Source: Chloroflexota bacterium
Lineage (GTDB): Bacteria; Chloroflexota; Anaerolineae; B4-G1
DNA: 40,952 nt
Reading direction: 5' to 3'
NCBI GenBank assembly: GCA_011048615.1
Contig: DSDT01000198.1
Coordinates: 1-40,952 of the forward strand
A program made the translations under genes and the position numbers. Below the pieces are notes generated by a model. The model was not told the DNA's origin and searched no databases. It was given only the letters and a program-made list of their open reading frames with translations. This document shows positions 28,419 to 34,079 of the stretch, one piece after another (position 1 is the first letter of the stretch; the number at the start of each line of letters is the position of its first letter).

Positions 28419-29291
28419 TCAGGCCATCTCTGCCTGGAGAGCTTGGAACTGCTCTGCTCGCAGCTTTTCCAACGGTTGATCCACCAGCGGGCCGGCTTGG
28501 AGGGCCGGGATCTGTTCCTCGTAGGTCGGGAGCGGCTCACTGCGGTAAACGATGCCTATGGGGATGCGGTCGCCCCACTCGAACGCTTTCTGCCAAGCGG
28601 CCGGGCGGTCGCTGGGATCGTAACCCTCCTCTTCCTCCAGCTTGTAGACCCGTTCGTTGTAAAAGTCGTAGGCATAGTTCCGGTTAAAGGTCACGCAGGG
28701 CTGGAGGACGTCCACCAGGGCGTAGCCGGGGTGCTGCAGCGCCTCGCCGATCAGCCAGGCCAGGTGTTTTAGCTCGCCCGAGTAGCCCCTGGCGACGAAG
28801 GTGGCGCCGGCAGTGATGGCCAGGGCCAACGGCTGCACTGGCTGCTCGATGGCGCCATGCGGCGAGGTCGGCGTGCGCTTGCCCTGCTCGCTGGTGGGAG
28901 AGTACTGGCCCTTTGTCAGGCCATAGATGCGATTGTCCTGTACCACGTCCACAATGTTCAGATTGCGCCGCACGGTGTTGAGAAAGTGGCTCAGCCCTTC
29001 TCCATAGCCATCCCCGTCGCCGTGGACGGCAATGATCGGCAGGCCGTGGTTGGCGAGACGGGCGCCGGTCGCCACGGTCAGCGTCCGTCCATGGAGGGTG
29101 TGGAACCCGGTTATCTTCATATAGTGGGGCAGTTTGCTGCCGCAGCCGACTCCCGTGACGATAAAGGCCTGGTGGGGGGCGATGTTTTGTTCGACCAGCG
29201 CCATTTTGATCCCGTTGAGGATGGCGTGATTGCCGCAGCCCGGGCACCAGGTGGGTCGTTCCTTTCCTTCAAAGTCTTGGCGCGTCAACAT
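28419..29291 (-). CDS. korB: 2-oxoacid:ferredoxin oxidoreductase beta subunit (TPP-binding)
   Basis: PTWCPGCGN, GVGCGSK, HTLHGR, GDGD, YGLTKGQYSPT, VLQPCVTFN. Confidence 0.92.
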   Translation of the reverse strand: MLTRQDFEGKERPTWCPGCGNHAILNGIKMALVEQNIAPHQAFIVTGVGCGSKLPHYMKITGFHTLHGRTLTVATGARLANHGLPIIAVHGDGDGYGEGLSHFLNTVRRNLNIVDVVQDNRIYGLTKGQYSPTSEQGKRTPTSPHGAIEQPVQPLALAITAGATFVARGYSGELKHLAWLIGEALQHPGYALVDVLQPCVTFNRNYAYDFYNERVYKLEEEEGYDPSDRPAAWQKAFEWGDRIPIGIVYRSEPLPTYEEQIPALQAGPLVDQPLEKLRAEQFQALQAEMA

Positions 29292-29292
29292 C

Positions 29293-31044
29293 TTACACCT
29301 CCTCCGGCAAATGAGCTAGAATGTACTCGGGCGTAAAGGGTCGGCCATCGTAGCGGCGAATTGCACCGGCGACCGAGCGGCCGGTTCGGGTGTGTAGCAA
29401 GGTCTCCAGTTGCCCGGTGCTGTTTCCCTCCACAACGATGGTCCGGTTCGTCTCGGCCAGAGCGGCCTGGGTAGCGGTCAGCGGGAAGGGATGGAGCGCG
29501 CCAAAGTGCAGCAGGTTCGCGCGCCGGGGCTGCTCGGCGTTGAGCCGGTCCACCGCCTCTCGCAGCGGGCCGTAGGTGGAGCCCCAGCACAGCAGGGTGG
29601 TCTCGGCCTCCTGCGGGCCGTACCAGGTTGGCTGCGGCACGTCCTCCTCGGCGCCCTGCATCTTGCGGGCCCGTTTGTTCACCTGGGCCACTCGATTGGC
29701 CGCATCCTCGCTGATGGCGCCGTATTCGTCGTGCTCGTTGGCGGTGGTGGTCCAGACTGCATTGGGGTGACCTGGCACGGCGCGGGGCGAGATGCCGGAC
29801 TCGGTGAACTTGAAGCGGCGGTAAGGCTCTTCCAAACTGTCCAACTGTTCTTTGGTCAGCAGTTCTCCCCGGTCTATTTCCACCGCGTCAAAGTTCAGCC
29901 CGTCCATCTCCAGGGTGCGGTACGCGACGGCCAGATAGTGGTCGCTGAGGACCAGGGCCGGGGTCTGGTACCGTTCTGCCAGGTTGAAGGACTGCCATCC
30001 GCTGTCGAACGCCTCCTCGATGGTGCCCGGGGTCAGGATGAAGCGGGGGAATTCGCCCTGGGAGGCGTGCAGCATGAACAGCAGGTCGCCCTGCTCGGTG
30101 CGGGTGGGCAGGCCGGTGGCTGGTCCGGGACGCTGGGCGTTGTAGACGACGATGGGGGTTTCGGTGATGCCGGCCAGGCCCAGCGCCTCGACCATCAGGG
30201 AGAACCCGCCGCCGGAGGTGGGGACCAGGGAGCGGGCGCCGACGTAGGCCGCGCCCACAGCCATGTTGATGGCCGCGATCTCGTCCTCGGCGTGTTTGGT
30301 GACGACGCTGTACTCGTCGGCGTGGGCGACGAACCAGTGCAGGACGGGCGAGCCGGGGGTCATCGGGTAGGCCGCGACGAAACGACAGCCGCCAGCCAAC
30401 GCGCCCAGGGAGAAGGATTCGGTGCCGTTGAGGCACAGCCGGGGCGGGGCGTCAGGCACGGCCTCCAGTCGGAAGGGGTATTCCTGCTGGAAAGGGCGCG
30501 AGGCCTCGATGCCGGCCTCAACGACGCGCAGATTGGCATTCACCACGGCTTCCCCTTTGGGGGCAAAGTTATCGCGGATGACGCTTTCCATGTACGCGGG
30601 ATCGAATCCGAGCAGGTTGGCCGCAACTCCCAGGATCACCGTGTTGCGCATCACTGGACGACCTCCCTTTTCCTCGGCCAATGCGGTCAAGGGGACGGGG
30701 AAGAAACTGACGTCGGGGCGGCGCAGGTCGTCGGACAGCTCGTCTTGCTGATCCTGGTCGTAGACCACCGCGCCGCCCTCGACGAGAGTGTTTACGTGCC
30801 GCCGGATCGTTTCCACGTCCAGGGCGAGCAGCAGGTGGATCGGCTCGGCGTGGGAGTAGAGCGGCTGTCGAGCGGCGCGGATGGAGAAAAAGTTGTGGCC
30901 GCCCCGGACGCGGGAGTAATAGTCGGGCAGGCCAAAGACATAGAGGCCGCCGCGTGTCAGCGCTTTGGCGAATCCGGCCCCGCTGGATTCCAGTCCCATC
31001 CCCGCCTCACCGCCGATGCGGATAGTGAGGTCGTTCTGTATCAT
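29293..31044 (-). CDS. korA: 2-oxoacid:ferredoxin oxidoreductase alpha subunit (gamma-alpha fusion)
   Basis: IGGEAGMG, YSRVRGGHN, AYPMTP, EDEIAA, TSGGGFSLMVE, RPGPATGLPTRTEQGDL, WGSTYG, VEGNSTGQL. Confidence 0.92.
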   Translation of the reverse strand: MIQNDLTIRIGGEAGMGLESSGAGFAKALTRGGLYVFGLPDYYSRVRGGHNFFSIRAARQPLYSHAEPIHLLLALDVETIRRHVNTLVEGGAVVYDQDQQDELSDDLRRPDVSFFPVPLTALAEEKGGRPVMRNTVILGVAANLLGFDPAYMESVIRDNFAPKGEAVVNANLRVVEAGIEASRPFQQEYPFRLEAVPDAPPRLCLNGTESFSLGALAGGCRFVAAYPMTPGSPVLHWFVAHADEYSVVTKHAEDEIAAINMAVGAAYVGARSLVPTSGGGFSLMVEALGLAGITETPIVVYNAQRPGPATGLPTRTEQGDLLFMLHASQGEFPRFILTPGTIEEAFDSGWQSFNLAERYQTPALVLSDHYLAVAYRTLEMDGLNFDAVEIDRGELLTKEQLDSLEEPYRRFKFTESGISPRAVPGHPNAVWTTTANEHDEYGAISEDAANRVAQVNKRARKMQGAEEDVPQPTWYGPQEAETTLLCWGSTYGPLREAVDRLNAEQPRRANLLHFGALHPFPLTATQAALAETNRTIVVEGNSTGQLETLLHTRTGRSVAGAIRRYDGRPFTPEYILAHLPEEV

Positions 31045-31068: not shown

Positions 31069-31617
31069 CTATCCGATGAAGAATGGGTATTCTTCGTCGT
31101 CCCACCAGGTGCCATTTTGGGTGAGGTAATTGTGGGTGTTCTGCAGCAGGCGGTAGTGGGCATCCTCCTGTTTCACTAGAAACTCGTAGGCCTGGCGGGC
31201 GTGAGAGTCGTCAGTCTCCTCGGCTCCCTGGGCGTAAATCTCGCGCGAGATGCGTTCGGTCTCCAGTCCGAATTCCAGGGCGGCGATGTCCCCTTGCAGC
31301 GAGACCTCCCGCTCAGGGGTGAAGACGGGCATGGGGTCGGGGGGTTCATCACCCGGCAGATCGGGATTGGCCGGATCCAGGGAAAAGTCGGTCTGCATCG
31401 CCTCATCGTAAGGGATCCAGCCCTGTCCTTCTTCCAAGGCACGATACTCGGCCAGCAGCAACCTGAGGTGATCCTCCTCCTGATTGGCCAGGTCGAGGAA
31501 CATGGCCCGGCCCCGTTCACTGGAGGCCCGTTCGGCGGCCTGGGTGTAAAAGTTGTATCCATCTCGTTCCAGGCTCATGCCACGCCGTAGAATACCTTGA
31601 GGTGTGTTCCAGTCCAT
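31069..31617 (-). CDS. Ferritin-like (rubrerythrin-family) di-iron protein without a rubredoxin domain
   Basis: AAGGAG SD and ATG at 31617; E..GYNFY, LANQEEDH, E....EIY, LVKQEDAH give two ExxH motifs. Confidence 0.85.
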   Translation of the reverse strand: MDWNTPQGILRRGMSLERDGYNFYTQAAERASSERGRAMFLDLANQEEDHLRLLLAEYRALEEGQGWIPYDEAMQTDFSLDPANPDLPGDEPPDPMPVFTPEREVSLQGDIAALEFGLETERISREIYAQGAEETDDSHARQAYEFLVKQEDAHYRLLQNTHNYLTQNGTWWDDEEYPFFIG

Positions 31618-31695
31618 CGTTGTTCTCCTTTTATGTTCTATGCACGTGTTGATTGTCCAGTTCAAGTGTTCCGCTCGGCTTTGGGTGTGTGACTG

Positions 31696-32187
31696 TCACG
31701 TGTCCTGCGTTTCGGCCAGGCGGTTCAGGCGGTCCAACAGGGCCAAGACCTGATCGTTTTTTGGGATGTCGGCCATGTCATCGCCAAAGTGGGTGAATTG
31801 TATGATCCCCTGGCGGTCCACGACCAGCATGGCGGGCATGCGTCCCAATTTTAACAGCTTGACCTGCTGCCCATAGAGGTCAGCGACGGTATGCTTATAG
31901 TCCGCGAACCCGACGAAGGGGTACTGCTGCTCGTCCCACACCTGTTTGAAGCGGCGGGGGCCCTCGGGACCGATCACCAGAATCTCGGCGCGTCTCTGCC
32001 TGAAAGCGTCATACGCCTCGCGCAACTGCGCGAGATGCGCTCGACAGTAGGGTCACGTAAACCCCCGGGTAAACACCAACACCACGTTTTCCTGGGCCCG
32101 ATAATCCGACAGCCGGATCGTGCGGCCTTGTACGTCGGTCAGTTCAAAGTCTGGAGCGGCCTGACCCACGGCGATAGAGTCGGTCAT
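31696..32187 (-). CDS. Peroxiredoxin-like (AhpC/TSA/redoxin) selenoprotein, 163 aa, UxxC active site (Sec45)
   Basis: GAGGAGG SD; ATG overlaps the OsmC TGA. Reads MTDSIAVGQAAPDFELTDVQGRTIRLSDYRAQENVVLVFTRGFT-TGA(32053-32055)-PYCRAHLAQLREAY... in frame with ORF 31696..32025; SECIS-like hairpin follows. Confidence 0.88.
32013..32040 (-). promoter_or_regulatory. Putative bacterial SECIS element
   Basis: GCGC(AU)CUCGCGC-AGUU-GCGCGAG-GCGU hairpin; begins 12 nt after the UGA, apical loop 25 nt after it, G at loop position 2 followed by U. Confidence 0.7.
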
Positions 32188-32621
32188 GTCGTTTCCTCCT
32201 CTGCCAGGGATGACTGCACGGTGATCCCTTGGGTGAGCATCTTGTGGATGGGGCAGTGTTTAGAGACCATAAAGAGCCGCCGCTCCTCGTCCGGTGTCAG
32301 GTCGCCGATCAGCCGGATTTTCTCTGTGATTTGCTCGTGATACTCATCAATCCCTTCACACTGCTCACAATCCTCGGCAAAGACGCGGTCGTATGTCAAA
32401 TCGAGTTCCACCTCTTGCAAGGCGACCTCGCGATGCTGGGCATAGGTGTGCAGGACGATGGCCGTGCATGATCCCAGTCCCGACAGCAGCAAGCCGTAGG
32501 GGGTGAGGTGATGCACCTCCGCGACGGGATGGAACCGGGAATCGTCGGGATTGTGGGGGTCCATAGCCAAGACGTGGGTCTCGAATTGGCTGTTCTGACG
32601 GACAATGACTCGTTCTCCCAT
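32184..32621 (-). CDS. OsmC/Ohr-family protein
   Basis: TPYGLLLSGLGSCTAIVL..YA and SKHCPIHKML carry the two conserved Cys; extra EDCEQC. Confidence 0.85.
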   Translation of the reverse strand: MGERVIVRQNSQFETHVLAMDPHNPDDSRFHPVAEVHHLTPYGLLLSGLGSCTAIVLHTYAQHREVALQEVELDLTYDRVFAEDCEQCEGIDEYHEQITEKIRLIGDLTPDEERRLFMVSKHCPIHKMLTQGITVQSSLAEEETT

Positions 32622-32648
32622 GTTGTACCTCCTCTCAGTTGGGATTCT

Positions 32649-33380
32649 CTACTTGGGTTGGCCGACGACGGTCATATAGATGGTGCTTTCTGCGACGCCG
32701 TCCACGTCTAGCAGCGCGTTCGCTTCGTCGTCGTATAGCGCTGCGATCTGACAACTGCCGAGGCCCAGAGCCACGGCTGCCAGGGCGACGTTTTGAGCGA
32801 CATGGCCGGCGTCCAGGTAGATGTAGCGGTAAGCCCGCTGCTTGTACTTCCACTTGGAGCGTTCGAACACTGCCGTCCAGACAAAGACGAGATTCGCCCA
32901 GTACGCGATCTCTTGGTCAAGGGCGGCGTGAGCGATCTGGGTGCGGAAATCGCCGGCAGCCAGTTGTTCCAGGGCGTGCGGCTCGACCGCATAGTGGTAG
33001 ATGCCGGGCTCGATGTCCGCGACGGTGTGCACGACCAGGTAGGTCTCGATGGGGTACAGGGCGCCGGCTGAGGGGGCCGCGCGGAACCCTAACCCCTGGC
33101 TGGTCAGGGTGATCCCCTGTCCGGCCCACAACAGCTGCGACAGCTCGGCTTCTTCCAGCGGGGCATCTCGAAAGCGGCGCACGCTGCGCCGCTGCTGGAT
33201 GACGGTCCAGATCGGCGGCCCGTGCTCCACATGGGGTGCGCTGAGAGCGATCTGGGGGGCCGAGGGGTAGCGCTTGTAGGGCGGCGGCTTGTTTGCCCAA
33301 TCCAATCGCCCGCCGGGCAGATGGCCGCGCTGATATTTTGTCTCGCGTTGGAAGGCGTCTCCAATGTTGGATGAGATCAT
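32649..33380 (-). CDS. SagB/ThcOx-type FMN-dependent nitroreductase-family protein
   Basis: RRSVRRF, LSQLLWAGQG, RAAPSAGALYPIE.Y, KY..RAYRYIYLDAGHVAQN..LAA.ALGLGSC. Confidence 0.88.
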   Translation of the reverse strand: MISSNIGDAFQRETKYQRGHLPGGRLDWANKPPPYKRYPSAPQIALSAPHVEHGPPIWTVIQQRRSVRRFRDAPLEEAELSQLLWAGQGITLTSQGLGFRAAPSAGALYPIETYLVVHTVADIEPGIYHYAVEPHALEQLAAGDFRTQIAHAALDQEIAYWANLVFVWTAVFERSKWKYKQRAYRYIYLDAGHVAQNVALAAVALGLGSCQIAALYDDEANALLDVDGVAESTIYMTVVGQPK

Positions 33381-33426
33381 GCGTCGCTCCTATAGAGAAT
33401 GGCTGTCCCGTCGCTCTGGTGGTCTG

Positions 33427-33786
33427 CTAGAAGGGTTGTTTTTCCCGTGGACGGCGTTCTGGTATAGGCTGGATCGTTTTCTCACCTCGCAGGACCTCGT
33501 CCGAGACATAGAGCGCGCAGTAGCATGCTCCCCAGTCACGCAGATCGGGGTCGCGGTACTCGCACGGGCAGATGATGTCCCGGTCTTTTTCCTTGTCGCC
33601 GACTGCCAGCCGACAGGGGCAGGCCTGGTATCCATACCGTTCTCGGTTGATCAGCAAGCCCTCGACCAGTCCCCAGGTGAACTCGCGGTTGGGATTGAGG
33701 TGGTAGCCGGTAGACTCGGCCCATTGATCCAGGCTCGCGTACACTTGGTCTATTTTTTCTGGGGGGATGATAATCTCTTTAGTCAT
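33427..33786 (-). CDS. Ferredoxin:thioredoxin reductase catalytic-subunit-like protein (FTRc/FDR)
   Basis: ATG at 33786; [41 protein letters not shown] give the CPC/CPC/CxC motifs of FTR. Confidence 0.9.
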
Positions 33787-33788
33787 CT

Positions 33789-34079
33789 CTATAGCTCCAG
33801 TATCTGTGCCAGTTCCTCGGGCTTGAAGCCCACCACGCTCTGTTCGCCGTCCACCACCACAGTAGGGAAGGATGTCGCCGGGTTCCAACGGCGAACTTGC
33901 TCCACGGCCTCTTCTCGCTCGGAGCCGTGAAGCAGGTCTATGTAGATATAGTCGAATGCCACATCCTCGTCTTCGAGAAATTGGCGCGTCCGTTTGCACC
34001 AGATGCAAGTGGACAGGCCGTAGAATGTGATATGGTGCACTTCGTTCGCGCCGGATACATACCCTCTCGCTTGTACCAT
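33789..34079 (-). CDS. Glutaredoxin/NrdH-like protein (CIWC)
   Basis: AAGGAGG SD; [28 protein letters not shown] (cis-Pro), VVGFKPE. Confidence 0.88.

Follow-up and report, generated by a model that had tools for sequence, protein, structure and literature searches.

This study examines a redox gene on the minus strand of a 40,952-nucleotide stretch of DNA, referred to as the window, which covers positions 1 to 40,952 of contig DSDT01000198.1 (assembly GCA_011048615.1) from a Chloroflexota bacterium of the class Anaerolineae. In the list of open reading frames (ORFs) obtained with genetic code table 11, the locus is represented only by a 109-amino-acid (aa) piece that starts from a TTG at 32025. 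An initial annotation, made from the DNA letters, proposed that this piece is the tail of a hidden selenoprotein gene with a single in-frame TGA encoding selenocysteine (Sec, U) in a UxxC motif. When TGA is read as U, one continuous frame is obtained, with the following features, including a putative Sec insertion sequence (SECIS):

31696–32187, minus strand: very probably a complete selenoprotein gene for an AhpC/TSA-fold UxxC redox protein (163 codons plus TGA stop, TGA read as U)
32195–32201, minus strand: Shine-Dalgarno-like GAGGAGG, 7 nucleotides (nt) 5' of the ATG, from direct reading of the sequence
32185–32187, minus strand: ATG start codon, in an ATGA overlap with the TGA stop of an OsmC-like ORF
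32053–32055, minus strand: in-frame TGA, codon 45, very probably Sec, in RGFT-U-PYC; the same column holds TGA or Cys in relatives
32044–32046, minus strand: TGT for Cys48, the second UxxC residue, invariant in alignments A1 and A2 and opposite the peroxidatic Cys of BCP
32017–32034, minus strand: putative SECIS hairpin CUCGCGC-AGUU-GCGCGAG with a 7-bp stem, from folding and comparison
32023–32025, minus strand: TTG, the gene-caller start of the 109-aa fragment in the ORF list, located in the hairpin loop and the first 3' base of the stem
31696–31698, minus strand: terminal TGA, a true stop, with no recognisable continuation in the sequence beyond it

The gene structure described in the initial annotation was recovered in full. 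The ATG at 32187, the GAGGAGG sequence and the overlap with the OsmC stop are all present as described, the 109-aa fragment is the only entry for the gene in the ORF list, and the frame opens with a redoxin-type N-terminus (MTDSIAVGQAAPDFELTDVQGRTIRLSDY...VVLVFTRGFT). The TGA at codon 45, followed by PYC, is the sole internal TGA of the 163-codon frame (VVLVFTRGFT-U-PYCRAHLAQLRE). The start position is common to the closest relatives, which begin with M-x-x-x-I/V-A/S-V/I-G-Q/K, and the relatives' ends, at TGA, TAA or TAG stops, fall a few residues from the end of the window gene. TGA also closes 10 of 32 long frames with high G+C at third codon positions (GC3) in the window and is thus an ordinary stop there, as had been stated. 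It is very probable that this is a real gene in which UGA encodes Sec, yielding a 163-residue cytoplasmic protein of the AhpC/TSA fold with the active site U45-P-Y-C48; decoding would be guided by the hairpin.

The evidence for this reading comes in large part from the codon 45 column in relatives. A protein search with the read-through product gave 358 matches, the best 120 of which were used for the database tallies of fragments and full-length entries. Seventeen of these 120 are full-length relatives (46–56% identity), with Cys at the Sec column in 11 and Trp (W) in 6. The W entries come from short contigs of 638–984 bases and are presumably TGA translated by another genetic code; when the DNA of the six was sought among the collected loci, the best match reached 64.7% identity. 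All five loci from named Anaerolineae or Anaerolineales assemblies (5/5; 52–77% identity) have TGA at the column. Within the window's class, a genome search at E ≤ 1e-20 gave matches in 143 of 401 genomes, and TGA is located inside the match in 141 of the 150 matches listed; these class-wide tallies take in genome G389, which also accounts for one of the nine listed matches that lack TGA. Thirty class-genome loci were fetched, the window's own included, and 29 of them carry R-G/S-F-x-U-P-x-C, the other (locus L049, genome G034) having Cys, encoded by TGC. In a metagenome scan that used 11 Cys forms as seeds, TGA was present in 25 of the 26 closest loci, and the remaining one is a Cys form identical to L049 in the hairpin stretch. 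Alternation of Cys and TGA among homologues, which had been suggested as a check on the Sec assignment, is thus found, with Cys in 11 of the 17 full-length relatives and TGC in L049 and with TGA in nearly all others.

The protein is conserved on both sides of the TGA, down to about 47% identity. Because the TGA is fixed at one active-site column and alternates only with Cys, decay, assembly error and chance are ruled out as its source. If the TGA were instead a real stop, in a broken or split gene or through a misassembled base, the 109-aa fragment or nothing at all would be made, and this is hardly credible. Table-11 calling does give only the C-terminal fragment, and the TGA at 32053–32055 is known from the assembly and not from reads, which speaks for a real stop and to that extent against Sec. 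However, dozens of genomes and metagenome contigs (47–77% identity) have the same codon at this active-site column, with both halves conserved in frame, and neither the active site nor the first three strands of the fold are contained in the 109-aa piece.

Selenocysteine machinery and the decoding of UGA

The Sec machinery, which the initial annotation had assumed for the organism, was found in the window's own genome (92% complete, 3.9% estimated contamination, 425 contigs), with tRNA-Sec, selA, selB and selD all above curated cut-offs. The tRNA-Sec gene matches Rfam model RF01852 with 74.2 bits (cut-off 47), and ARAGORN reports a tRNA-SeC with anticodon TCA. SelA scores 547.5 bits (cut-off 267.9), and SelB is full length with 355.4 bits (cut-off 242.25; model positions 2–580 of 581). 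SelD scores 385 bits (cut-off 125) and has one in-frame TGA, in SAAG-U-AAK; the Sec motif of selenophosphate synthetase is given as UxxK in the part of a 2026 review cited here (PMC13188914). The selD gene (locus L018, contig C42, 1303–2238) is therefore another selenoprotein gene, which would likewise be split by table-11 calling.

Across the class, selA was found in 350 of the 401 sampled genomes (347 above the curated cut-off; the tally takes in the unpublished genomes G346 and G389, on which nothing beyond these tallies depends), so that Sec use is the rule in this lineage. With such a base rate, an association of the gene with selA has little weight on its own. G034, the source of L049, is among the 51 class genomes without a selA match.

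Several observations pull against decoding as Sec. The Sec genes are located on other contigs of the 425-contig assembly, for which 3.9% contamination is estimated. No selA match was found in four genomes that contain the TGA form (G168, G169, G382 and G399; 90–94% complete, 230–910 contigs). Moreover, both Sec at codon 45 and expression of the gene are predicted from sequence, which leaves room for a different reading, namely that UGA is decoded as Trp, Cys or Gly by near-cognate read-through or by SelB-independent local recoding. The W recorded at the column in 6 of the 17 full-length database relatives would also agree with such decoding. It is nonetheless very improbable: Trp would abolish the chemistry of the CxxC redox site to which this column, otherwise Cys, belongs, and the W entries, from such short contigs, are more simply TGA under another table. 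In addition, the full Sec machinery is present together with a conserved hairpin at SECIS distance, and the only close Cys form occurs in a genome without a selA match. The preferred reading is that UGA codon 45 would be decoded as Sec by the genome's own SelA/SelB/SelD/tRNA-Sec system, as the parts found suggest. As for the Cys form itself, L049 (also represented by L060) is the only close full-length one, and its features suggest that Sec was recently replaced by Cys once the Sec trait had been lost.

The putative SECIS hairpin

Bacterial SECIS elements are typically hairpins inside the ORF whose apical loop contains a G and lies about 16–37 nt downstream of the UGA. In the window gene, a stem-loop with a GC stem of 6–7 bp and an AGUU loop is present within the coding region at this distance: the stem begins 18 nt after the UGA, the loop (32024–32027) begins 25 nt after it, and the hairpin as a whole lies 18–38 nt after it. 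Its position and shape, as predicted from the DNA, fit the bacterial pattern. It encodes H-L-A-Q-L-R-E of the first helix of the protein. SelB would bind this GC-rich AGUU hairpin in the coding region and deliver Sec-tRNA to the UGA.

The AGUU loop on a GCGC/GCGC core occurs in 51 of 54 distinct TGA-form sequences. Codon choice was compared in 59 distinct TGA-form genes between the hairpin and the rest of the same genes, for the four codons under the inner stem and loop:

Ala GCG: 56 of 59 at the hairpin; 26% elsewhere in the same genes
Gln CAG: 56 of 56 at the hairpin; 72% elsewhere in the same genes
Leu UUG: 56 of 59 at the hairpin; 14% elsewhere in the same genes
Arg CGC or CGU: 55 of 56 at the hairpin; 55% elsewhere in the same genes

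Arg CGG, which breaks a pair, is used once at the hairpin, compared with 28% of Arg codons elsewhere. This synonymous-site constraint is a stronger argument for the hairpin than covariation. In the gap-free alignment A3, 85.7% of the helix cells are in standard pairs, versus 18–57% when the 3' partners are slid by 1–3 columns, and the covariation score of 0.148 (at most 0.098 in the slid versions) was reached by 0 of 500 shuffles. Pair 24–37 is G-C in 44 sequences and C-G in 7, a compensatory change, and pair 25–36 is G-C in 38 and G-U in 13. The swap from G-C to C-G at 24–37 costs a change of Met to Leu and of Gln to Glu, and marks the window's own clade.

A number of results count against a SECIS function of this element. 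Folding of the 71-nt stretch behind the UGA is no better than that of shuffled sequences (z = -1.3; 22 of 200 shuffles at least as good), and the case for the hairpin thus rests on comparison. The covariation is thin, with both-sided change in only 2 of 7 pairs, a count matched by 378 of 500 shuffles, and of this helix RNAalifold on A3 recovered the four outer pairs only. A search of Rfam with region 31600–32300 at E up to 1 gave 0 matches; Rfam is not known to hold a general bacterial SECIS model. Furthermore, the peptide H-L/M-A-Q-L-R is conserved in Cys forms too, and L049 (identical to L060), the one distinct Cys-form DNA, keeps the stem and has GCUU in place of AGUU in the loop; conservation of the protein could thus account for part of that seen in the nucleotides. 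The hairpin is lacking in six distant Cys genes from the metagenome scan (39–41% identity), and as a control the Cys forms are weak, since the scan gave one close form (the same as L049) and these six distant ones.

In a divergent sub-clade with the peptide C-R-A-x-L-A-R-L (loci L025, L078 and L085), the UGA is kept and the AGUU hairpin is absent. Other stems, read by eye, are present at or near the same place: one hairpin is shifted two codons upstream, and two have stems of 5–6 bp with 7-nt loops.

Fold, active site and relation to known families

The read-through product matches Pfam AhpC-TSA (PF00578) over residues 7–131 (E 6.7e-28; 97.6 bits, cut-off 26) and Redoxin (E 3.3e-19), and no NCBIfam model reaches its cut-off for the protein. 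An AlphaFold2 model built from an 18-sequence alignment has a predicted local distance difference test score (pLDDT) of 94.2 and a predicted template modelling (TM) score (pTM) of 0.90, and in it U45 lies where the loop that follows strand 34–39 ends, just before helix 46–57. Its closest structures in the Protein Data Bank (PDB) are BCP/PrxQ, AhpE and Prx1 (TM 0.81–0.86, 17–28% identity). In the HMMER alignment to Aeropyrum BCP (2cx3), Cys48 is opposite the peroxidatic Cys, U45 is opposite the Ser of S-P-V-C, Arg41 is opposite the Pro of PxxxT/SxxC, and Pro118, two residues after the invariant Arg116, falls at the place of the catalytic Arg.

Since Sec aligns with the Ser/Thr of T/SxxC and Cys48 with the peroxidatic Cys, the active site, as judged from these alignments, is predicted to be a thioredoxin-type UxxC in a peroxiredoxin scaffold. 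The peroxiredoxin-like active site of the initial annotation is thus correct for the fold and has to be amended for the site itself; its placement of the TGA at the first Cys of CPYC agrees with the thioredoxin-type alignment. The TxxC of peroxiredoxins is regarded as a derivative of CxxC, with the catalytic Arg taking the place of the thioredoxin cis-Pro. If this equivalence of Arg and cis-Pro is right, Pro118 would favour oxidoreductase over peroxidase chemistry.

A role as a thiol:disulfide or sulfenate reductase is somewhat more likely than not. In the proposed mechanism, the U45 selenolate at the helix N-terminus would take the place of the attacking Cys in a thioredoxin-type CxxC and attack an oxidised substrate, which may be a disulfide, sulfenate or hydroperoxide. 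Cys48 would then resolve the intermediate, forming a selenenylsulfide, and a reductant of the thioredoxin or glutaredoxin type would recycle the U45/C48 site.

A true Sec peroxidase of the GPx or PrxU kind, in which a hydroperoxide would convert U45 to a selenenic acid that C48 resolves, keeps the Sec reading and is possible but rather unlikely. The fold and the nearest solved structures are those of the peroxiredoxins BCP, AhpE and Prx1, an invariant Arg (Arg116) is found two residues ahead of the place that corresponds in the alignment to the catalytic Arg of peroxiredoxins, and the gene is located between OsmC-like and rubrerythrin-like genes, both from peroxide-stress families. On the other hand, the PxxxT/SxxC signature is lost, with Arg41 for Pro and Sec for Thr/Ser, the PrxU score of 24 bits is below the cut-off of 270, the sequence also matches ResA/TlpA-type thiol-disulfide oxidoreductases significantly (E 1e-6 to 2e-8), and an OsmC neighbour is found in only 4 of 34 related loci.

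Comparison with known systems places the protein, as a probable oxidoreductase, among several peroxiredoxin-fold families. The BCP/PrxQ and AhpE peroxiredoxins (PDB 2cx3, 3drn, 3hjp and 1xvw) share the fold (TM 0.81–0.86) at 21–28% identity and have Cys at the place of Cys48, but differ at Arg41 (Pro), Sec45 (Thr/Ser) and Pro118 (catalytic Arg). PrxU (TxxU; NF040737) is likewise a peroxiredoxin-fold selenoprotein; its Sec is peroxidatic, whereas the Sec of the window protein is three residues upstream and the peroxidatic place keeps Cys, and the model score of 24.1 bits is below the cut-off of 270. The best NCBIfam match is NF040769 (SelL-related redox protein; E 2.9e-21) over residues 10–99, which include the redox motif, but the 75.9 bits are below the cut-off of 120 and only model positions 2–92 of 173 are covered. 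SelL is presumably a peroxiredoxin-fold protein with a UxxU motif, whereas the window motif is UxxC, with one Sec.

The closest description is that of the "Prx-like thiol:disulfide oxidoreductase" selenoproteins (PF00578, UxxC/UxxU). Table 1 of the 2026 review (PMC13188914) has this family among those predicted with high confidence and gives its function as unknown, and the cited part of a 2006 survey (PMC1794560) reports it from Geobacter, Syntrophus and Desulfotalea. The window gene shares with this family the PF00578 domain, an in-frame UGA as the first position of UxxC at the place of CxxC, a coding-region hairpin after the UGA, the predicted function, and the Cys-containing homologues that are a feature of the family. 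It shows every feature of the family that was testable here, and membership is judged by described features, not by identity to the family's representative. The hosts differ, being Anaerolineae-type Chloroflexota here and Deltaproteobacteria there, and almost every copy of the gene in the class sampled here is in the Sec form, with an almost invariant hairpin. The gene is thus a genuine mis-annotated selenoprotein, and a member of a family known for about twenty years. Little is conceptually new, as peroxiredoxin-fold UxxC selenoproteins have been predicted since the mid-2000s, as stated in the cited parts of both sources (PMC13188914, PMC1794560).

What is new is that many members of the class carry the gene (143 of 401 genomes), that its Sec form is nearly universal there and that databases routinely truncate it (103 of the best 120 matches). 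New as well are the unusually uniform SECIS and the clear synonymous-site constraint on it. These forms might constitute a distinct, class-wide and mostly Sec-containing subfamily of peroxiredoxin-fold UxxC proteins, with a near-invariant SECIS GCGC-AGUU-GCGC, outside curated models and catalogues, although this is put forward tentatively. If true, the UUG of the loop would double as the false start behind hundreds of truncated database entries. The class would in that case be a large selenium-using lineage absent from the review text (selA in 350 of 401 genomes), with this protein among its commonest selenoproteins. A literature search found no description of an Anaerolineae class-wide form, which supplementary selenoprotein catalogues may list; 'chloroflex' and 'anaerolin' have 0 occurrences in the main text of the review (PMC13188914), and the cited part of the 2006 survey counted only 3 selenoproteins in all Chloroflexi then sequenced (PMC1794560). 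With its near-invariance and synonymous constraint, the hairpin is a clean and searchable SECIS example for a Chloroflexota lineage, and a ready test case for SelB–SECIS recognition outside model organisms.

Annotation, gene neighbourhood and distribution

The initial annotation expected standard pipelines to split this gene, and the databases agree with it: 103 of the best 120 matches are pieces of at most 120 aa (63–99% identity) that start just after the TGA and contain only the part behind it. Most of the 103, judged by their first residues, begin with L/M-RE(D/E)..., and the window gene and more than 100 database clusters of relatives are recorded as fragments of 95–118 aa without the active site. 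These fragments are attributed to gene callers that would halt at the UGA and begin anew from the UUG of the hairpin loop, which gives the 109-aa fragment in the window. The practical value of the finding is in annotation, as re-annotation would restore a full redox enzyme in one third of the sampled class genomes.

The gene is part of a run of redox genes on the minus strand (31069–34079 of the window), assigned by Pfam:

33789–34079, minus strand: glutaredoxin-like (Grx-like)
within 33427–33750, minus strand: ferredoxin-thioredoxin-reductase (FTR) catalytic-chain-like
32649–33380, minus strand: nitroreductase
32184–32621, minus strand: OsmC-like (Pfam OsmC, E 3e-12), directly upstream of the selenoprotein gene
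31069–31617, minus strand: rubrerythrin/ferritin-like, downstream of the selenoprotein gene

This local redox context fits a duty in oxidative stress. The FTR-like and Grx-like genes of the run use Cys; Sec forms of both families are included in the cited part of the 2026 review (PMC13188914). Further downstream, two large ORFs (28419–31044) resemble 2-oxoacid:ferredoxin oxidoreductase, by eye only.

A tblastn search with the window's six neighbours against the 34 related loci found OsmC in 4, the rubrerythrin-like gene in 3, nitroreductase in 2, and the FTR-like and Grx-like genes in 1 each. Clustering of the flanking ORFs, filtered by GC3 because the unfiltered clustering was swamped by shadow frames, likewise tells against a conserved context, none of the neighbour clusters being present in more than 5 of 35 loci. 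No partner gene is therefore claimed. The idea that the selenoprotein is a dedicated reductant of the OsmC-like protein was dropped, as OsmC adjoins so few of the loci.

Neither of the two genomes sampled from the window's own family gave a match at E ≤ 1e-20, though both have selA, and the closest relatives (75–77% identity) belong to other families than the window's. Several of these closest relatives share the OsmC-like and nitroreductase neighbours. The patchy distribution (rows G272, G353 and G065; loci L021–L024 and L031) suggests loss or transfer of the small cluster. Two TGA codons per match were observed in L041 (genome G284) and in rows G398 and G116, and in L041 the second one is located upstream of the active site.

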